Virus record (IMG/VR): IMGVR_UViG_2681813316_000023
Span: 1-4,853 of that record
DNA length: 4,853 nucleotides
Strand: one strand, 5' to 3'
Origin: a virus
Taxonomy: Duplodnaviria; Heunggongvirae; Uroviricota; Caudoviricetes
Every line of letters starts with the position of its first letter. Within the stretch, counting starts at the first letter, position 1. Below, one piece after another: positions 1 to 4,853 of this stretch. A model generated the notes under the pieces. That model was not told where the DNA came from. It saw only the letters and a program-made list of their open reading frames with translations, and did not search any database. Both the position numbers and the translations under genes were made by a program.

Positions 1-1
1 T

Positions 2-121
2 ATAAAAGACAGTCTGACACTGGGACTGAATGCGCTGACGCTGACGGATGTTACAAAAAATGCAGCGTATGGCGTTGAGATAGAAAGTCTGATGCTGGAG
101 ATAAATGCACCGGCAGCATAA
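2..121 (+). CDS. 3' end of an upstream gene (partial, last 39 codons, ends ...LEINAPAA); product unknown, possibly the late-region gene preceding the lysis cassette
   Basis: Only frame 2 is open from the window edge to TAA at 119-121 (followed by a second TAA at 122-124); the other + frames hit stops within ~75 nt. Too short to assign a family. Confidence 0.3.
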   Translation: MKDSLTLGLNALTLTDVTKNAAYGVEIESLMLEINAPAA

Positions 122-158
122 TAAAAAAAGCCAGCGCCCACTCTGAAGGACGCTGGCT
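121..158 (-). terminator. Intrinsic-terminator-like hairpin oriented for the minus strand (stem 129-136/151-158, A7 tract on the + strand = U tract on the minus transcript)
   Basis: agccagcg (129-136) pairs perfectly with cgctggct (151-158), with two further C:G pairs possible inside the loop; the T/U run lies only on the minus-strand side. Confidence 0.5.
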
Positions 159-333
159 AAAACGGGTAGATGTACTTCACATGATACTTATATTTGGCAG
201 TACATTTTCTGACAGACAGTGACGGATGTTGTCAAGATATTGTGTCATTTATAACCTGAATCAGGGGTTGGTCGGAATGTTATCTGGCATTTTTAGCAGA
301 GCCTGAATGCCATAATCACGGCTCCCGGAGTTG

Positions 334-368
334 GCCGTCAGTGGGTGACACTGGCGGCTTTTTGTTTT
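334..368 (+). terminator. tR'-like rho-independent terminator in the late leader immediately upstream of the holin
   Basis: 10-bp stem gccgtcagtg (334-343) / cactggcggc (349-358) with one G:U, 5-nt loop ggtga, followed by TTTTTGTTTT (359-368). Confidence 0.6.
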
Positions 369-413
369 CCTTTACTTTCATTTTCTGTCGGCGGTGACGG
401 AGACATACATCAG

Positions 414-620
414 ATGGAAAAAATCACAACGGGTGTGTCATACACCACGTCAGCGGTGGGGACGGGATACTGGTTACTGCAGCTGCTGGACAAAGTCTCT
501 CCGTCCCAGTGGGTGGCAATAGGTGTACTGGGGAGTCTGCTGTTTGGCCTGCTGACGTATCTGACTAACCTGTATTTCAAAATCAGGGAGGACCGCCGTA
601 AGACGGCGCGGGGAGACTAA
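414..620 (+). CDS. S: Class II holin (pinholin, phage 21 S21 / E. coli essD family), 68 aa
   Basis: Translation [68 protein letters not shown] closely matches my recollection of S21(68)/EssD: two TMDs, the first Gly/Ala/Ser-rich, and a charged C-terminus ...[13 protein letters not shown]. Start placed at ATG 414, not the track's GTG 345, because GTG 345 lies inside the terminator hairpin and homologues begin at M-(D/E)-K. GGAG at 399-402. Confidence 0.85.
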
Positions 621-624
621 AGCG

Positions 625-1614
625 ATGAAGAAAAAATACGAACTGGTTGTTAAAGAGATAAATAATTACCCGGATAAGATTGCTGTTACTGTGGCACTTG
701 AAATTGGCGGGCATCCGTCGTTGTTGTTGCCACATGTGGCGATTAGTCTTGACCGTACTGAAGGTGCCACGCTGGAGTTCTACGAAGCTGAGGCGAAAAA
801 ACAGGCGAAGCAGTTTTTCATGGATATTGTTGCCGGGTTATGCGAAGGGGATGAACCGTCACCGGAAAAGCGCCCCGTAATTTTAGATGCGCAGGATGTA
901 TTGATAACCTACAAAGGAAAGCTACCGGGAAGAATTACTTGTTCTCTGAAGATGCCGCCGTCAACACTGCGGTCAGAAAAAGATGATGTTGAATCGCGTA
1001 TTGAAAAACTGGAGTGCTATATCGCTGAATTGAAAAAAAGCACCCCAACAAAAAATGAGGTGCTTGCAGCAGACGAAATGAAAGAAGCTATTCCTGATCG
1101 CGCGGCGAATCTAAGCTGCGCTTCATGGTTGAAAGAGCATCTTCAGCAGCCTGAAAAAAAACGCCGCGATGAGCAGTTTGCTGCGTTTTACGATTATTGC
1201 CGGAAAGTGATGAGCAGAAATCTCGCAGAGTGTTTCAGTATTCATAATGATAATTTCAGTGACCTGGAATGGGAGTGTAACCGGCCATCCTTTGTTGTAT
1301 CCGGTGATGCTGGGAAAATAACCATCTCAGAAAATGGAAAAGTAACACCGCCATCGCACCAGCATAGTGAGGAGCTCATTGAATTTGCCATTGATTACCT
1401 GAAGAACAATAAAAAGCAGGGGCTGATGAAGTGCATTGGTCGTTGCATGGGATATCTGCAGATAGCTGCTGAGATTGAAGCGCTGGCCAGTGGTGCGGAC
1501 AAGGATGCAGTTGTGCGGAAGGCTCTTCTTCGTGATTTTGATAATCCGCCCTTTAAAAAAGTGCCGGCTTACTGGTTTCATCCAGGACTGACTTATCTTA
1601 AAGGACGTATATAA
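625..1614 (+). CDS. Hypothetical 329-aa soluble protein inserted between holin and endolysin (moron/cargo gene); family not recognised
   Basis: Uninterrupted 329-codon ORF co-oriented with the lysis genes; ATG 625 lies 4 nt after the holin stop, with GGGAGA at 611-616. No signal peptide or TMD evident. Charged coiled-coil-like middle (about residues 110-180) and a Cys-containing C-terminal half. Confidence 0.75.
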   Translation: MKKKYELVVKEINNYPDKIAVTVALEIGGHPSLLLPHVAISLDRTEGATLEFYEAEAKKQAKQFFMDIVAGLCEGDEPSPEKRPVILDAQDVLITYKGKLPGRITCSLKMPPSTLRSEKDDVESRIEKLECYIAELKKSTPTKNEVLAADEMKEAIPDRAANLSCASWLKEHLQQPEKKRRDEQFAAFYDYCRKVMSRNLAECFSIHNDNFSDLEWECNRPSFVVSGDAGKITISENGKVTPPSHQHSEELIEFAIDYLKNNKKQGLMKCIGRCMGYLQIAAEIEALASGADKDAVVRKALLRDFDNPPFKKVPAYWFHPGLTYLKGRI

Positions 1615-1656
1615 GCTGGCTCGTTATCTGTTGCCGATAAATCCTGATAAATATCC

Positions 1657-2190
1657 ATGAACACCAAAATCAAATACGGCCTGTCGGCTGCCGTTCTGGC
1701 GCTGATTGCCGCTGGTGCGCCTGCGCCTGACATTCTCGACCAGTTTCTGGATGAAAAGGAAGGTAACCACACCACGGCATACCGTGATGGTGCGGGGATC
1801 TGGACCATCTGCCGTGGTGCCATCATGGTGGATGGTAAACCTGTTGTTCCAGGCATGAAGTTGTCGACGGCAAAATGCGCTCAGGTTAACGCCATTGAGC
1901 GTAATAAGGCGCTGGCATGGGTGGAGAAAAACATCAAAGTGCCATTGACCGAACCACAGAAAGCGGGGATTGCGTCATTCTGTCCGTACAACATTGGCCC
2001 CGGTAAGTGTTTCCCGTCGACGTTTTATAAACGAATTAATGCAGGCGATCGCAGGGGGGCGTGTGAGGCGATTCGCTGGTGGATTAAGGACGGTGGCAGA
2101 GACTGCCGTATTCGCTCAAACAACTGTTACGGTCAGGTATCCCGTCGCGACCAGGAGAGTGCGCTGGCGTGCTGGGGAATTGACAGATAA
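1657..2190 (+). CDS. R: SAR endolysin, T4-lysozyme-like muramidase (GH24), phage 21 R21 / P1 Lyz family, 177 aa
   Basis: N-terminal weakly hydrophobic Gly/Ala-rich signal-anchor-release segment YGLSAAVLALIAAGAPAP. Catalytic triad in the canonical context E35-G-N...R-D44-GAG-IW-T50. Downstream conserved blocks ...KINAGD..GACEAIRWW... match GH24 SAR endolysins as I recall them. Confidence 0.9.
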   Translation: MNTKIKYGLSAAVLALIAAGAPAPDILDQFLDEKEGNHTTAYRDGAGIWTICRGAIMVDGKPVVPGMKLSTAKCAQVNAIERNKALAWVEKNIKVPLTEPQKAGIASFCPYNIGPGKCFPSTFYKRINAGDRRGACEAIRWWIKDGGRDCRIRSNNCYGQVSRRDQESALACWGIDR

Positions 2191-2280
2191 GCAGAATATT
2201 TTGCTGAAAAATGCGGTTTGCTCACACGGACGGATAACACGAAATCCTGCGAACTGACAAAAACTAAGAGAATAAAAGTA

Positions 2281-2320
2281 AAAACCCCGTTTGTTGGCTG
2301 CAAGCGGGGTTTTGTGTTTC
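2281..2320. terminator. Strong hairpin / bidirectional intrinsic terminator between the endolysin and the Rz module
   Basis: aaaaccccgtttg (2281-2293) pairs with caagcggggtttt (2301-2313) around a 7-nt loop; A run before and T-rich tract (ttttgtgtttc) after. Confidence 0.6.
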
Positions 2321-2349
2321 CTGACTCCGGAAAAGTCAAAGGAGAAAGT

Positions 2350-2487
2350 GTGTTTGATTTTAGCAAACTGATTCGGGAGATTCGAGTGATGGCTGAAAAA
2401 TTATCCACCTGGAAGTTCATTCTTATCTGGCTGGTGTTTGTGATTATGGCCTCCGGTTATTTCATCGGTCAGATACGCTGGTGGTGA
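2350..2487 (+). CDS. Small single-TMD membrane peptide (45 aa from GTG 2350, or 32 aa from ATG 2389), translationally coupled to Rz; function unknown
   Basis: AAAGGAG (2338-2344) lies 5 nt upstream of in-frame GTG 2350; a second in-frame start ATG 2389 follows GGGAGA (2375-2380). Product ...MAEKLSTWKFILIWLVFVIMASGYFIGQIRWW has one ~21-residue hydrophobic helix. TGA 2485-2487 is 1 nt from the Rz ATG 2489. Confidence 0.35.
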   Translation: MFDFSKLIREIRVMAEKLSTWKFILIWLVFVIMASGYFIGQIRWW

Positions 2488-2488
2488 A

Positions 2489-2926
2489 ATGAACCGCGTA
2501 CTGTGCGTGGTCATCATTGCCCTGCTGGTGGCCTGTGGTGCGCTTAGTCTGGGGCTGAATCATTACCGTGATAACGCCATAACCTACAAAGAGCAGCGCG
2601 ATAAAGCCACATCCACAATCGCTGATATGCAGAAGCGTCAACGTGACGTAGCAGAACTCGATGCCAGATATACAAAGGAGCTTGCTGATGCTAACGCGAC
2701 TATCGAAAGCCTCCGTGCTGATGTTTCTGCTGGGCGTAAGCGCCTGCAAGTCGCCGCTACCTGTGCAAAGTCAACGACCGGAGCCAGCGGCATGGGCAAT
2801 GGAGAAAGCCCAAGACTTACAGCAGATGCTGAACTCAATTATTACCGTCTCCGAAGTGGAATCGACAAGATAACCGCGCAGGTCAACTACCTGCAGGAGT
2901 ACATCAGGACGCAGTGCTTAAAATAA
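2489..2926 (+). CDS. Rz: Rz i-spanin (inner-membrane spanin subunit), 145 aa
   Basis: N-terminal TMD followed by NHYRDNAITYKEQRDKA...MQKRQRDVAELDARYTKELADA...AGRKRLQV, near-collinear with lambda Rz as I recall it. Contains the embedded +1-frame Rz1. Confidence 0.9.
   Translation: MNRVLCVVIIALLVACGALSLGLNHYRDNAITYKEQRDKATSTIADMQKRQRDVAELDARYTKELADANATIESLRADVSAGRKRLQVAATCAKSTTGASGMGNGESPRLTADAELNYYRLRSGIDKITAQVNYLQEYIRTQCLK
2688..2873 (+). CDS. Rz1: Rz1 o-spanin (outer-membrane lipoprotein spanin subunit), 61 aa, embedded in the +1 frame of Rz
   Basis: AAAGGAG (2674-2680) sits 7 nt before ATG 2688. Signal peptide MLTRLSKASVLMFLLGVSA with lipobox L-G-V-S-A-C, then a Pro-rich mature region CKSPLPVQSQRPEPAAW...LNSIITVSE resembling lambda Rz1. 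ATG 2661 from the ORF track was not used (no SD, over-long signal peptide). Confidence 0.8.
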   Translation: MLTRLSKASVLMFLLGVSACKSPLPVQSQRPEPAAWAMEKAQDLQQMLNSIITVSEVESTR

Positions 2927-2963
2927 TTTTAATTTCACTGAAATTTAATACGTGACTTTCAGG

Positions 2964-2992
2964 AAAATGCCTCGCAGATGCGGGGCATTTTT
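2964..2992 (+). terminator. Rho-independent terminator closing the lysis operon
   Basis: Stem tgcctcgc (2968-2975) / gcggggca (2980-2987) with one G:U, 4-nt loop agat, flanked by AAAA (2964-2967) and TTTTT (2988-2992). Confidence 0.7.
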
Positions 2993-3285
2993 GTACAGGT
3001 ATTTCACCGCGCACCGCAGTGCACTCAACCACGTCGAACCAAACCCTTTGGAATGAGCCTTTGAGTAGTCAGTTAGTGCTGGTGAGCCTTGACGGGCTGA
3101 TCTCCTATGCAGCAAAGGTTCATCTCAAAGTAAGGCGAACGCTATGACAAACCAAGATTCTATAGACCTATCTGATCTTCGTGGAATGGTCAGTTTTCCA
3201 GACAAAAGGTAATCACCATAGTCGTATGGCTATGAATCTTGTTGCTGCAGATAAGCATTTTGTGATTGAAGTGGTCAAATCTCTC

Positions 3286-3342
3286 AAATGCAGTAAAATG
3301 CAGTGCGCTATAATTCAATAACGGAGGGAGTAAGGAGAAGTC
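3286..3342 (+). promoter_or_regulatory. Putative promoter/operator and RBS of the island nuclease-like gene: tandem 9-mer AAATGCAGT x2, consensus -10 TATAAT, SD AAGGAG
   Basis: AAATGCAGT at 3286-3294 and 3296-3304 (10-bp register); TATAAT at 3309-3314; GGAGGG at 3323-3328 and AAGGAG at 3332-3337, 5 nt before ATG 3343. No clean TTGACA-like -35 was found. Confidence 0.35.
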
Positions 3343-3963
3343 ATGAAAGATCAAGATGTTAGGTTCGCGGTGCATCATAAGCTTTTGAAAGAATCGCATT
3401 TAGATCCAGACTGCCTTGTGGTCGATGAATTTTCCATATCCCTTGGCGCCAGTAGAGCAGACATTGCTGTAATAAATGGTGTTATACACGGGTACGAGCT
3501 CAAAAGTGAATATGACTCTTTGGAGCGTTTGCCTCTTCAAATCAAGCATTATTCTTCTGTAATGGACAAGGTTACTCTTGTCGTAGCTGAGAAACATCTT
3601 GAGGGAGCATTAAAGTTAATCCCAGGTTGGTGGGGCGTTAAAACGGTTTCTGTTGGGCCAAAAGGCGCCATTCTTATAAAGCACATGCGTGGAGAAAAGC
3701 TTAATCGAAACCATGACACATTGATGCTCGCTCAATTGCTTTGGAAAGATGAATGTATCGACGTACTTGAACGATGGGGCTATTCCAAAGGAATCAAAAG
3801 CAAGCCCCGATTTGAGTTATGGAATATTATTGCGGAAAATATTCCAATAGCGAATCTCAGGCTTGAAGTCAGAACAGCCTTAAAGAAACGCGTAGGCTGG
3901 AAAGTTAAGGCTTGGCAGGCTGAGTCTGCGCCAACCAATAAAGCTGTCTCACGACTAACGTAA
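3343..3963 (+). CDS. PD-(D/E)xK (restriction-endonuclease-fold, Hjc/Mrr-like) nuclease-domain protein, 206 aa, on an AT-rich island
   Basis: Long ORF in AT-rich DNA with a strong SD. Motif E29 (VVDEF) ... D40 (RADIAVING) ... E52-L-K54 (VIHGYELKS) is the arrangement of PD-(D/E)xK nucleases. The C-terminal ~110 residues are basic and Trp-rich with no motif I recognise. Confidence 0.75.
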   Translation: MKDQDVRFAVHHKLLKESHLDPDCLVVDEFSISLGASRADIAVINGVIHGYELKSEYDSLERLPLQIKHYSSVMDKVTLVVAEKHLEGALKLIPGWWGVKTVSVGPKGAILIKHMRGEKLNRNHDTLMLAQLLWKDECIDVLERWGYSKGIKSKPRFELWNIIAENIPIANLRLEVRTALKKRVGWKVKAWQAESAPTNKAVSRLT

Positions 3964-4774
3964 TATGGTGCGTATGTGCAACTTTACGCCATTCTTTAGA
4001 GCCGCCAGATTTGTTAGCGCCTAATGATCTTTGGTAAATGTAATCATCCCCCCAACTAAATTTGGAACCAAAGACTTGATACTCTGGCGAACTAACAAGG
4101 GTAGTACATAAGTTTTTAGTTTGGCCCCATCCATTTCCTTTAACTGCGGTACCTTTTACAAAGATCCATGAGGTATCGTTCGAATATCTCACTGAGACAT
4201 ACTGAGACATGAAGCGTGGGTCTACGCTCGTAATGGTAGAGCTAGCGGTGGGATAATCACTAAAACTTGGCGTTCTTCCATTGCTAAAATTCTGTACTAC
4301 GTACATCCAAAGATCGTATTCATGGCGCGGAATATGATGAACTTGATGTTGCGGTATCCCTGCCTGTGATGCTGGGTATGCGGTTGAAGATAAAATCAAG
4401 TTTCTCCACGGAGCTTGGCCTGATAATGTGTTGACCATGCTTAATGCTTGTTGTTTTAAACTATCAGTTGCGTTTTGAATATCTCCAAAATCAATGATTA
4501 CATCAATTAAACTAGGATGAATATTTAAGTGGTTAACCAGACTTGTGAATTGGTGCCATGTCTGGGGGGTGATAGATATAGCGAGCCCATTGATTAAGTT
4601 GCGTTGAACAGCATGTATATAGTTTGTTGAATATGCGGGAGAAACAACAGGGATAATTTCCTTACCATTTACTCTAGCATCTTGGATACACATATCTAGA
4701 GGATGATGGCGGCTCGAACCATGTTTATCTAAATATTTAACATCCAGCAAAACAGGACGATTGATCCTACCCAC
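3905..4774 (-). CDS. Hypothetical 289-aa protein on the AT-rich island, convergent with and 3'-overlapping the nuclease-like gene; function unknown
   Basis: 870-nt uninterrupted minus-strand ORF in AT-rich sequence, where long ORFs are unlikely by chance. First start is GTG at 4774 with no convincing SD (next ATG is codon 27), so the start is uncertain. No TMD or signal peptide; no motif I can assign. Confidence 0.65.
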   Translation of the reverse strand: MGRINRPVLLDVKYLDKHGSSRHHPLDMCIQDARVNGKEIIPVVSPAYSTNYIHAVQRNLINGLAISITPQTWHQFTSLVNHLNIHPSLIDVIIDFGDIQNATDSLKQQALSMVNTLSGQAPWRNLILSSTAYPASQAGIPQHQVHHIPRHEYDLWMYVVQNFSNGRTPSFSDYPTASSTITSVDPRFMSQYVSVRYSNDTSWIFVKGTAVKGNGWGQTKNLCTTLVSSPEYQVFGSKFSWGDDYIYQRSLGANKSGGSKEWRKVAHTHHITLVVRQLYWLAQTQPAKP

Positions 4775-4853
4775 GTAATATGGACACAGGCCTAAGCGAG
4801 GTTCTGGTTTTCAAATTGTTCCGGACTGAGGCCGCCACACCAACTGTGCCGCC

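Follow-up and report, generated by a model that had tools for sequence, protein, structure and literature searches.

A mobile hairpin and dual-start membrane-peptide gene between endolysin and Rz of a tailed phage, probably silenced by a short antisense RNA

Background

Type I toxin-antitoxin (TA) systems in which a cis-antisense RNA lies over the ribosome-binding site of the toxin include SymE/SymR, Hok/Sok, Ibs/Sib and ZorO/OrzO, and their antisense RNAs are about 60-140 nt long. Phages also encode cis-antisense RNAs, namely the sar RNA of P22 acting on ant and the OOP RNA of lambda acting on cII, which are about 70-77 nt long and are transcribed from promoters that lie within their target genes or beside them. 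Among lysis genes, dual-start holin/antiholin genes are known from lambda (S107/S105, with the sdi stem-loop) and from phage 21 (S21 71/68), and LysA of P2 is an accessory membrane protein of the lysis cassette. The gp25 'releasin' of Mu is another such accessory protein (PMC9239132). Morons have been described in the late operons of lambdoid phages (Juhala et al. 2000, as cited in PMC4104026).

The locus studied here lies in the lysis cassette of a Caudoviricetes phage (IMG/VR record IMGVR_UViG_2681813316_000023, positions 1 to 4,853), and the whole stretch of 4,853 nucleotides is referred to as the window. The spacer between its endolysin and Rz genes was compared with these systems.

Results and Discussion

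The spacer and its neighbouring genes

The initial annotation of this DNA had proposed an insert of about 300 bp between endolysin and Rz. The insert was borne out by comparison with other phages in which R and Rz overlap, such as the K-12 prophage Qin, an 'empty site' where rrrQ and rzpQ overlap by 4 nt, and all the sequence features that the annotation listed were found where it had placed them. The flanking features are as follows.

1657-2190, plus strand: SAR (signal-anchor-release) endolysin of the R21 type, the upstream neighbour (Pfam Phage_lysozyme, E 3.8e-24)
2191-2270, no strand: endolysin-linked 3' flank of about 80 bp (88% identity to the Sakai Sp10 R-ant spacer over 2191-2283)
2489-2926, plus strand: Rz i-spanin, the downstream neighbour (Pfam Phage_lysis, E 2.3e-37)
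2688-2873, plus strand: Rz1 o-spanin embedded in Rz, from the ORF list (lipobox LLGVSAC)

The window also holds an S21-type pinholin at 414-620 (Pfam Phage_holin_2_1). The endolysin gene ends with TAA at 2188-2190, the N-terminus of its product (MNTKIKYGLSAAVLALIAAGAPAP) is weakly hydrophobic, and the equivalent gene of H-19B is annotated as R, similar to phage 21 R. The 3' flank contains a small palindrome, GGATAACACGAAATCC, at 2232-2247. The Sakai Sp10 R-ant spacer that resembles this flank is without the hairpin cassette described below, and in many E. coli genomes the match is restricted to the first 130-157 nt of the query. No homology was found between the flank and Qin rzpQ, for which reason its origin as a decayed rzpQ start was rejected, and no reading frame through it was conserved among related loci. 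The chances are about even that the spacer is made of two parts, the endolysin-linked flank (2191-2270) and a self-contained mobile cassette (about 2271-2487).

The spacer was highly variable, with 51 distinct versions in about 80 related loci, marking it as a recombination hot spot. At other loci the cargo of this spacer is ant, a DNA methylase or a different small ORF, and the Sakai prophages have other cargo types there. A near full-length copy of the present spacer was found in 869 of 5426 complete E. coli genomes (about 16%), including many Stx1 and Stx2 phages, H-19B among them. It was also observed that in E. fergusonii a remnant of a lambda-Rz-like start adjoins another small ORF.

The small membrane-peptide gene

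The 3' part of the spacer holds a short gene with two in-frame starts that closely adjoins Rz.

2350-2487, plus strand: 45-codon gene with a GTG start for a tail-anchored single-pass membrane peptide (phrog_6632; dN/dS)
2375-2391, plus strand: internal start, with the SD-like GGGAG at 2375-2379, a 9-nt spacer and ATG 2389 (Met14), giving a 32-aa short form
2485-2491, plus strand: stop/start joint TGA-a-ATG read from the sequence, with TGA 2485-2487, one base and the Rz ATG at 2489

The encoded peptide, MFDFSKLIREIRVMAEKLSTWKFILIWLVFVIMASGYFIGQIRWW, showed one hydrophobic stretch at residues of about 22-41 (Kyte-Doolittle >2), in accordance with the earlier description of the product as essentially one transmembrane helix. 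At 45 aa (32 aa in its short form) it falls among membrane peptides of less than 60 aa, as type I toxins do. It matched phrog_6632, a phage protein family with no assigned function, over its entire length (E 1.2e-29, residues 1-45 on profile positions 1-45 of 45). The ORF has been annotated by PGAP as WP_000459345.1 and is left unannotated in most phage records. Its dN/dS was 0.09-0.15 against the Salmonella, Citrobacter and E. fergusonii homologues, with dS saturated, which indicates purifying selection. This conservation pattern shows that the small ORF is a genuine gene.

The profile search of 1.84 billion representative proteins revealed 41 representative clusters, all of 32-86 aa, and viral contigs were searched with two sub-alignments of the 21-sequence family alignment. 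Homologues were found in E. albertii, E. fergusonii, Salmonella, Citrobacter, Burkholderiaceae, Neisseria, Pasteurellaceae and Pseudomonas phages, so that the family spans phages of gamma- and beta-proteobacteria. Searches of Pfam, NCBIfam and PADLOC gave no match for the peptide, known holin and toxin families included; holins have 2-4 helices or are of class III, and here a single C-terminal helix was seen. No report was found on searching the literature for the peptide sequence and for small ORFs of Stx-phage lysis cassettes. The type C peptide is unrelated to this family, as the hhalign probability was 0.2%. The R-Rz junction is a hot spot that gathers several unrelated one-helix peptides and needs a functional explanation.

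It had also been suggested that the hydrophobic segment is a remnant of the N-terminus of another spanin. This idea was rejected, as the peptide has no similarity to Rz (BLASTP against the Rz of the window gave no alignment), its profile matches are all of 32-86 aa with no full-length spanin among the relatives, and its dN/dS is about 0.1. The same data bear on the broader explanation that the ORF is recombination debris, either the decayed N-terminus of a spanin or holin or no more than a leader ORF that delivers ribosomes to Rz. The hot-spot character of the spacer (51 versions in about 80 loci), the E. fergusonii remnant beside another small ORF and a joint that suits a leader role agree with debris, but family members without any downstream spanin add to the evidence of selection, size and dissimilarity, and the selection and distribution data effectively refute this explanation, whose probability is now negligible. 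Most probably the peptide is a late protein that acts on the membrane and is potentially toxic.

Dual start and joint with Rz

The two in-frame starts proposed earlier, each with its SD, were present and conserved. The first consists of AAGGAG at 2339-2344, a 5-nt spacer and GTG 2350. At the internal start, 90% or more of the 21 diverse members of the family had Met14, and codon choice preserved an SD-like motif before it in 12 of 13 lineages, where 2.7 would be expected. In three natural variants (L139, L176 and L177) a stop occurs at codon 12 and the short frame is intact. Both starts and both SDs being conserved, two products are predicted, as from dual-start holin/antiholin genes.

The ORF had been described as coupled to Rz. 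Its end 1 nt before the Rz ATG is real, and the same stop-1 nt-ATG joint was found in Salmonella, Citrobacter, E. fergusonii and SPN3UB before different i-spanin families, which makes it a conserved feature of enterobacterial lambdoid phages. This is the geometry expected for translational coupling, and the coupling itself is what the geometry suggests. Distant relatives have no spanin downstream of the small ORF; hence any coupling to Rz would be local and not a trait of the family.

Terminator hairpin and SD-occluding stem

Two RNA stems precede the first start.

2271-2323 (stem-loop 2281-2313), both strands: predicted bidirectional intrinsic-terminator hairpin, from terminator scan, folds and conservation
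2317-2345, plus strand: second stem, in which UUUCCUGACU pairs with AGUC..AGGAGA and the first SD is occluded in the fold

The strong hairpin terminator that the initial annotation placed at 2281-2320 was recovered by the terminator scan and by RNA folds as a stem-loop at 2281-2313. It reads AAAACCCCGTTTGT-TGGCT-GCAAGCGGGGTTTT, forms 14 pairs and is followed by GTGTTTCC. Its 3' side provides the U-rich tail UUUUGUGUUU on the plus strand, while the A-run on its 5' side becomes UUUUUACUUUUAUU on the minus strand, so that a GC-rich stem-loop directly followed by a U-tract, the form of an intrinsic terminator, is predicted on both strands. The hairpin was the dominant RNA fold: the segment 2276-2400 gave -39.9 kcal/mol (z = -3.7), and 0 of 200 shuffles were equally stable.

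The hairpin was present in all 33 protein variants with energies of -14 to -26 kcal/mol, and the distance from its end to the ORF start was about 28-39 nt in all except L194, where the nearest hairpin is imperfect. The stems differ in sequence among family members, the spacing to the ORF is held, and it is kept across lysis, head and tail gene contexts. On the minus strand a U-tract 3' of the hairpin was seen in every lineage examined. Covariation was found in both helices. Helix 1 (the hairpin) was 93.6% paired with compensatory changes in 7 of 11 pairs, and helix 2 (the SD-occluding stem) was 75.9% paired with compensatory changes in 3 of 5 pairs; in relatives the equivalent of the second stem, CCUUG/CAAGG, becomes CGUUA/UAACG, CCUUCUG/CAGAAGG or CAUG/CAUG. 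For both helices 0 of 500 shuffles reached the observed pairing, and slid controls were far lower. As judged from this conserved arrangement, the hairpin belongs to the small ORF and not to the endolysin, which is a new finding. The comparison with R-Rz junctions of related phages that had been advised thus showed an ORF under selection, with the hairpin and two starts conserved in distant phages.

The terminator had been taken to imply that Rz and Rz1 depend on antitermination or on an internal promoter. A need for antitermination is ordinary lambdoid biology because Q-modified polymerase reads through terminators in lambdoid phages; what had been missed is that the hairpin travels with the small ORF and not with R, and that it is bidirectional.

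Predicted antisense promoter and RNA

The bidirectional hairpin could also end a transcript of the opposite strand, for which two features are predicted.

2357-2365, minus strand: predicted antisense promoter, with the extended -10 TGCTAAAAT and a weak -35-like TCGAAT at 2380-2385
2272-2350, minus strand: predicted cis-antisense RNA of about 80 nt, from the geometry of promoter and terminator

A minus-strand extended -10 (TGnTAnnnT) ending 3-11 nt inside the ORF was found in 10 of 13 lineages, whereas the protein sequence alone predicts 1.0, and TAnnnT in 13 of 13 against 3.6. These counts are to be read with the facts that the lineages of the codon tests, that on the internal SD included, are not independent because they share ancestry and that AT-rich 5' codons could inflate a -10-like motif. 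The position of the motif was fixed at about +7, inside codons 3-5, and it was kept in GC-rich hosts too, as in L180 (64% GC) and Pseudomonas phage YMC11/02/R656. Synonymous divergence was low in codons 2-13 (pS 0.23-0.44) compared with codons 15-45 (0.72-0.92). According to the codon tests, it is synonymous codon usage that preserves both the minus-strand -10 and the internal SD. The -35 matched at 3 of 6 positions, and the generic promoter scan of the window did not report a promoter at 2357-2365. A second promoter-like site of the minus strand inside the ORF (2472-2443) was dropped, since the Salmonella homologue lacks its hexamers on inspection by eye.

An RNA of about 80 nt is predicted because the -10 is conserved at about +7 and the bidirectional terminator lies 28-39 nt before the start. 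It folds with -21.8 kcal/mol (z = -3.4); through its 5' part it is antisense to the start codon, to the SD and to stem 2, and the terminator hairpin and U-tail make up its 3' part. From this layout we infer that the antisense RNA exists and represses translation.

The evidence on the minus strand also bears on whether the locus is a plain moron. In that case the hairpin would be only a portable sense terminator or insulator at a module boundary, the ORF would encode a commonplace accessory membrane protein of the late phase, such as a spanin helper or a factor in lysis timing, there would be no antisense RNA, and the -10 look-alike would arise from the [FI]-S-K motif and AT-rich early codons. 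The hairpin is indeed good as a sense-strand terminator, the N-terminal motif is conserved family-wide at the protein level too, and the silent promoter scan at 2357-2365, the weak -35 and the lack of a reported sRNA at the site (Rfam, Sakai Hfq-CRAC) fit as well. But TGnTAnnnT occurs at a fixed offset beyond the protein requirement (10/13 against 1.0, GC-rich hosts included), the hairpin-to-start distance is held at 28-39 nt, and the 5' A-run of the hairpin is conserved, which is needless for a sense terminator, as such a terminator does not require a 5' A-run. The plain moron is the chief alternative, though a rather doubtful one.

Searches for a described RNA were negative. Rfam 15 (including AgvB, AsxR and STnc100) gave as its sole match a sub-threshold rimP-leader (26.8 bits against a gathering threshold of 47), driven by the terminator, and nothing was found by Rfam in the equivalent regions of five related loci. 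The Hfq-CRAC table of Sakai held no peak in the R-Rz spacers of Sp4, Sp6, Sp10 and Sp15, which carry other cargo; EcOnc11 of Sakai lies just downstream of Rz. Cis-antisense RNAs are often Hfq-independent.

These searches also weigh against a functional plus-strand sRNA, either derived from the endolysin 3'UTR or independent, which would end at the hairpin like AgvB/AsxR and leave the ORF secondary. Such a product would be consistent with the A-rich stretch and Rho-independent terminator, with the wider distribution of the first 130-157 nt than of the ORF half, and with the richness of prophage late regions in sRNAs (PMC4104026). However, besides the absence of an Rfam match and of Hfq-CRAC peaks in the Sakai R-Rz spacers, the scan of 2191-2349 found no sigma-70-like promoter on the plus strand, distant relatives have unrelated sequence 5' of the hairpin, and the published AgvB/AsxR sequences are different and lie upstream of the holin, which makes this product very improbable. 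An AgvB/AsxR-type anti-sRNA formed by the C/A-rich 2221-2245 and the terminator was rejected on the same difference in sequence and position: these sRNAs are located either 3' of stx or upstream of the holin gene, and their Rfam matches in Sakai Sp10 fall outside the spacer, ahead of the esterase gene. Pas sRNAs were likewise rejected, as they lie between the esterase and holin genes and not in the R-Rz spacer (bioRxiv 10.64898/2026.05.13.724894).

Genomic contexts and mobility

The same ORF and hairpin were found behind different holins, endolysins and i-spanins, and relatives of the small ORF also lie among head or tail genes, because of which the function of the peptide is not strictly tied to lysis. 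A specific link to SAR endolysins was rejected because the GH19 endolysin of E. fergusonii and the endolysin of Citrobacter, beside which the cassette is present, have no hydrophobic SAR-like stretch at the N-terminus. A Burkholderiaceae prophage carries two copies of the cassette in tandem, with other toxin-antitoxin morons next to them. In the loci examined it was always co-oriented with the late genes. Homology among relatives starts at the hairpin, and the sequence 5' of it is unrelated in distant relatives; hence no upstream promoter belongs to the cassette. Hairpin and ORF may, at even odds, form a widespread, undescribed mobile cassette of proteobacterial phage late operons.

Of the three ideas offered earlier for the peptide, the type-I-toxin-like one fits best because a conserved predicted antisense promoter and a terminator bracket the ribosome-binding site, though the part that did not stand is the toxin's own promoter: in type I systems the toxin is transcribed from a dedicated promoter into a stable mRNA, and no plus-strand promoter was found in 2191-2349. 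The cassette is not an autonomous toxin-antitoxin unit, since no sense promoter belongs to it. An autonomous system for addiction or abortive infection would make a depolarising toxin from its own promoter in the lysogen, held by an unstable antisense antitoxin, and would serve prophage maintenance or defence and not lysis. The small hydrophobic peptide, the predicted antisense promoter and terminator over the ribosome site, the occluded SD, the weak start, and the moron-like mobility next to toxin-antitoxin morons in the Burkholderiaceae prophage would suit it. Against this, the stretch of about 30 nt from hairpin to start holds no sense promoter and the hairpin is the 5' border of the cassette, the cassette is always co-oriented with late genes, and neither PADLOC nor a known toxin family matched, rendering such a system unlikely.

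Proposed model and significance

The reading that accounts best for these observations, with a confidence of about one half, is a membrane peptide with two starts that is guarded by an antisense RNA and made from late transcripts antiterminated by Q. Silencing of the peptide by this short RNA is probable and would resemble that in type I toxin-antitoxin pairs. The cassette would combine the bidirectional terminator hairpin, the SD-sequestering stem, the two-start peptide gene and a promoter on the opposite strand, from which an RNA of about 80 nt would run from the start codon across the ribosome-binding site to the same hairpin. In the lysogen, sense transcripts without Q modification would end at the hairpin, and the antisense RNA, together with the occluded SD and the weak GTG start, would block any leak-through. 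After induction, Q-modified polymerase would pass the hairpin, sense mRNA would exceed antisense RNA, and the peptide would be made in the long and/or short form. In the lambdoid context, ribosomes ending at TGA 2485-2487 could restart at the Rz ATG 2489. The layout may be compared to a type I toxin-antitoxin pair or to the antisense control of P22 sar/ant.

If this model holds, one of the most thoroughly studied gene cassettes in biology gains an RNA-controlled membrane peptide, which would have consequences for when lysis occurs and hence for when Shiga toxin is released. The terminator, antisense RNA and hidden SD would make a compact, portable off-switch design, and the type-I-toxin-like repertoire would be enlarged by a family across beta- and gamma-proteobacterial phages.

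A more far-reaching reading, which is speculative and improbable at present, is that the cassette represents an unrecognised, widespread class of phage 'locked' micro-membrane proteins, in which the antisense RNA and SD-hiding stem set the long/short ratio of a potent depolarising peptide acting as an extra lysis timer or trigger or in host shut-down. Such a peptide might fire pinholins and release SAR endolysins. If true, lambdoid lysis cassettes, including those of Shiga-toxin phage, would have an RNA-controlled fifth component, and the antisense RNA of a resident prophage might silence the gene and coupled spanin of a superinfecting relative.

Comparison with known systems

The cassette resembles type I toxin-antitoxin pairs in its hydrophobic one-helix peptide of less than 60 aa, in a short antisense RNA (here predicted, about 80 nt) with its own promoter and Rho-independent terminator and complementary to the SD and start, and in a translation start hidden in mRNA structure. 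It differs in that no dedicated sense promoter was found, so that the gene would be fed by late-operon read-through; its hairpin doubles as a sense-strand terminator; its helix is C-terminal (tail-anchored), whereas that of known toxins is N-terminal; and it has two conserved starts, with toxicity and antisense RNA being predictions. With P22 sar and lambda OOP it shares a short phage antisense RNA, predicted here, covering part of the target gene and acting on its expression. Their targets are regulators of the immunity region, whereas here the target is a late-operon membrane peptide, and there is no sequence similarity and no Rfam match.

Like the dual-start holins, the cassette encodes a small membrane protein of the lysis cassette with two in-frame starts and an upstream RNA stem affecting access to the first. 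It has one helix in contrast to the 2-3 of those holins, its starts are 13 codons apart, its gene follows the endolysin, and its relatives occur outside lysis cassettes. P2 LysA and Mu releasin are likewise small membrane proteins within or beside the endolysin-spanin genes and modulators of lysis, not its executors, a role that could be assigned here by analogy, and a SAR endolysin is present here as in Mu. Neither protein shows sequence similarity to the cassette peptide, releasin is anchored by its N-terminus and its cytoplasmic domain is larger, and the cassette peptide is also found beside endolysins without a SAR-like N-terminus. Finally, as with lambdoid morons, an extra, terminator-bounded and highly mosaic gene lies between essential late genes, but the terminator stands upstream of the cassette gene and not downstream, and no moron promoter is evident.

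Gene content of the window

The window represents the late region of a lambdoid E. coli prophage of the H-19B / Stx-phage type, and positions 1634-4763 showed 99% identity to strain 14EC047.

Features of the window in gene order
left end: 3' end of a nanS-p-type esterase gene
414-620: S21-type pinholin
625-1614: DUF1327/YdfR-like ORF, 329 aa, between the pinholin and the SAR endolysin
1657-2190: SAR endolysin
2191-2488: R-Rz spacer, 298 bp, between the SAR endolysin and Rz
2350-2487, plus strand: small ORF, 45 codons
2489-2926: Rz with embedded Rz1
downstream of Rz, last in order: defence-like gene pair, interrupted by IS3
3343-3963, plus strand: sce7726-family gene, its end overlapping the convergent minus-strand gene
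3905-4774, minus strand: 'beta family'/PD-Lambda-2_C-like gene, convergent with the sce7726-family gene

The DUF1327/YdfR match of the 625-1614 ORF was confined to its first 100 residues; since the YdfR protein at this position in related prophages has only about 115 aa, the ORF was regarded as an extended or fused form. It also matched phrog_1085. The defence-like moron downstream of Rz occupies 3343-4853; its 'beta family' gene is truncated at about 4764, where an end of the IS3 element lies, and strain 14EC047 has an intact version of 355 aa. Just past the esterase stop (120-365), convergent terminator-like hairpins were located on the minus strand (158-129) and the plus strand (333-359). 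Convergent sRNAs of the AgvB/AsxR/PasA/PasC type are encoded at this site in related phages; no Rfam match to them was obtained at 120-365, and a divergent or new sRNA pair may lie there. Another A/T-flanked hairpin, aaaatgcctcgcagatgcggggcattttt, was present just 3' of Rz (2960-3000). In Sakai Sp10, the minus-strand EcOnc11, a candidate Hfq-bound sRNA, lies immediately downstream of Rz, and the sequence of that region is not similar to that of the window.

The small ORF of the spacer

The features proposed in the initial annotation were examined. The strong hairpin terminator was recovered by terminator scan and RNA folds at 2281-2313 with a U-rich tail, and both proposed starts were located, the first being GTG 2350 behind AAGGAG with a 5-nt gap and the second, in frame, ATG 2389 behind GGGAG with a 9-nt gap. 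The ORF ends as described, with TGA 2485-2487 and a single base before the Rz ATG at 2489, and the 45-aa product carries its sole hydrophobic helix near the C-terminus, in accordance with the one-transmembrane-helix product expected. The region had also been called an insert relative to overlapping R and Rz; as the homologous rrrQ and rzpQ overlap by 4 nt in K-12 Qin, it is a true insert against an existing 'empty' arrangement. The suggestion that the peptide is a remnant of a spanin N-terminus was rejected, because no similarity to Rz was found.

The sequence comparisons indicated that the 45-codon ORF is a real gene. It showed a full-length match to phrog_6632 (function not known; E 1e-29) and is annotated as hypothetical by PGAP and in one phage record. 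Homologues occur in E. albertii, E. fergusonii, Salmonella and Citrobacter. Pairwise dN/dS was 0.09-0.15, synonymous sites being nearly saturated, and stops are abundant in the other two frames. Among 1.84 billion representative proteins, a profile search matched 41 clusters, every one of 32-86 aa, with named members from Burkholderiaceae, Neisseria, Pasteurellaceae and Salmonella phage SEN34; tblastn added SPN3UB, FSL SP-016, an Actinobacillus phage and a Pseudomonas phage. No mention of small ORFs of the R-Rz spacer was found in the literature searched.

Association of the hairpin with the small ORF

The hairpin belongs to the small ORF and not to the endolysin. The same ORF lies behind a different holin family and SAR lysozyme in Salmonella, between a GH19 endolysin and a DUF2514 i-spanin in E. 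fergusonii, and behind yet another endolysin in Citrobacter. In phages that are more distant, it is placed among head genes (Pasteurellaceae) or among tail or baseplate genes (Neisseria, Actinobacillus and Pseudomonas phages), and in Burkholderiaceae it forms a tandem pair close to terminase and toxin-antitoxin morons. A hairpin of -14 to -26 kcal/mol was found just upstream of the start in 33/33 protein variants, with the design AAA(A/G)CCCC...GGGG(U/C)UUU and an end-to-start distance of 28-39 nt in all variants except L194, whose nearest hairpin is imperfect; 5' of the hairpin, the sequences of different lineages are unrelated. In a 23-sequence alignment, pairing in the hairpin reached 93.6%, and 7 of 11 pairs showed compensatory changes. 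A further short stem (stem 2), in which CCUUG pairs with CAAGG of the SD, had 75.9% pairing and compensatory changes in 3 of 5 pairs, and its equivalents in other lineages are CGUUA/UAACG, CCUUCUG/CAGAAGG and CAUG/CAUG. None of 500 shuffles reached the observed values, and slid-partner controls were far lower. Because an A-run flanks one side and a U-run the other, the hairpin is predicted to act as a two-way terminator.

The tandem duplication in Burkholderiaceae prophage L181 (3229-4379) spans about 700 bp, and each copy is made up of a repeated upstream segment of about 250 nt, then the hairpin, then a small ORF ending AIRWW. The N-terminal halves of the two ORFs are different, and no spanin gene follows. 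The peptide of Actinobacillus phage vB_Apl-pPE4 (L284, 1995-2132) resembles the E. coli type very closely and recurs identically in IMG/VR contig L251. Since its gene sits between baseplate genes in a phage of a Pasteurellaceae host, recent horizontal transfer of the cassette is suggested.

Variability of the R-Rz spacer

The R-Rz spacer is a recombination hot spot. Among about 80 viral contigs with near-identical endolysins, 51 distinct spacers of several architectures were found.

Architectures of the R-Rz spacer
298 nt: after the endolysin flank, hairpin and the window's peptide (type A)
335 nt: hairpin and type B, another peptide, with the ending AIRWW
438-500 nt: hairpin and type C, a 60-aa peptide, then either type B' or type D, a 43-aa peptide
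642 nt: hairpin and four small ORFs or ORF remnants
~990 nt: antirepressor gene and type D, the arrangement seen in Sakai Sp6, Sp10 and Sp15
1426 nt: hairpin, small ORFs and a DNA methylase

The small peptides each have one helix, and each falls in its own PHROG, of function not known. The first ~90 nt past the endolysin stop (2191-2283, 88% identity) are retained even where the hairpin is missing, so this segment belongs with the endolysin gene. It holds a small palindrome, GGATAACACGAAATCC (2232-2247), which is conserved in the E. coli and Salmonella versions behind 15 variable nt.

In the spacers of E. coli prophages L013 (2656-2982), L014 (2656-3141) and L012 (2722-2835), one-helix peptides of at least three other, unrelated families are stacked, namely phrog_1115/4493, phrog_4906 and the AIRWW type. 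The type C gene has the same hairpin and SD stem upstream, and a minus-strand TATACT ends 7 nt inside its ORF. In E. fergusonii locus L009 (3736-3925), a second, unrelated one-helix ORF of 50 aa ending ...VKWW is followed by tATGTCCCGGGTA, resembling a remnant lambda-Rz start (MSRV), and then by the hairpin cassette, which looks like a recombination fossil at the small-ORF/Rz joint.

Dual start and predicted antisense promoter

The dual start is conserved. Met14 was present in at least 90% of 21 diverse family members, and an SD-like GGAG/GAGG 8-10 nt upstream of it was kept in 12 of 13 lineages, where 2.7 would be expected given the protein sequence, related lineages being treated as independent. 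This motif is often formed by CGG or AGG for Arg, both rare in the codon usage table employed for E. coli, together with GAG for Glu. Most lineages have GTG or TTG as the first start, and natural variants with a stop at codon 12 keep the short frame intact.

A conserved minus-strand antisense promoter is predicted within the ORF start. Its extended -10, TGCTAAAAT (minus strand, 2365 to 2357), ends 7 nt inside the ORF, and the same motif at the same offset was found in E. coli, Salmonella, Citrobacter, E. fergusonii, Burkholderiaceae, a Pseudomonas phage and two unrelated metagenomic lineages, one at 64% GC. Synonymous codons were re-drawn for each lineage's own amino-acid sequence in 13 lineages of <60% mutual identity; with related lineages treated as independent, TGnTAnnnT ending 3-11 nt inside the ORF occurred in 10/13 against 1.0 expected, and TAnnnT in 13/13 against 3.6. 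The pS of codons 2-13 (0.23-0.44) was low compared to that of codons 15-45 (0.72-0.92), which fits a conserved minus-strand -10. The -35 element is weak. The predicted RNA, with its 5' end at about 2350 and its 3' end at the minus-strand U-tract of the hairpin near 2272, would be about 80 nt long and complementary to the start codon, SD and stem 2; it would cover the first start only. It folds to -21.8 kcal/mol (z = -3.4). The spacer region matched no Rfam family, and Hfq-CRAC gave no peak in the R-Rz spacers of Sakai, which carry other cargo types.

Proposed working of the cassette

The proposed mechanism combines this anatomy with what is established for Q antitermination in lambdoid phages. 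The peptide would be kept off in the lysogen partly through the hairpin, which would terminate unmodified sense transcription, and partly through the predicted antisense RNA, occlusion of the SD and weakness of the start codon. Once the prophage is induced, polymerase modified by Q would pass the hairpin and the peptide would be made. In the window, ribosomes terminating at the small ORF stop could restart at Rz, one base on; this joint is kept among enterobacterial lambdoid phages and is missing elsewhere. Silencing on this scale would suggest that the product is potent and membrane-active; it may serve in lysis timing, depolarisation or something else. A strictly spanin- or endolysin-specific role is argued against by the occurrence of the cassette outside lysis cassettes. 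The observation in the initial annotation stands, and its interpretation is supported in part: a type-I-toxin-like peptide is favoured, and a remnant is rejected. The cassette is best filed as a putative antisense-controlled small membrane-toxin-like gene embedded in phage late operons, and its predicted antisense RNA has the cis-antisense regulator geometry common to SymR, Sok and P22 sar.
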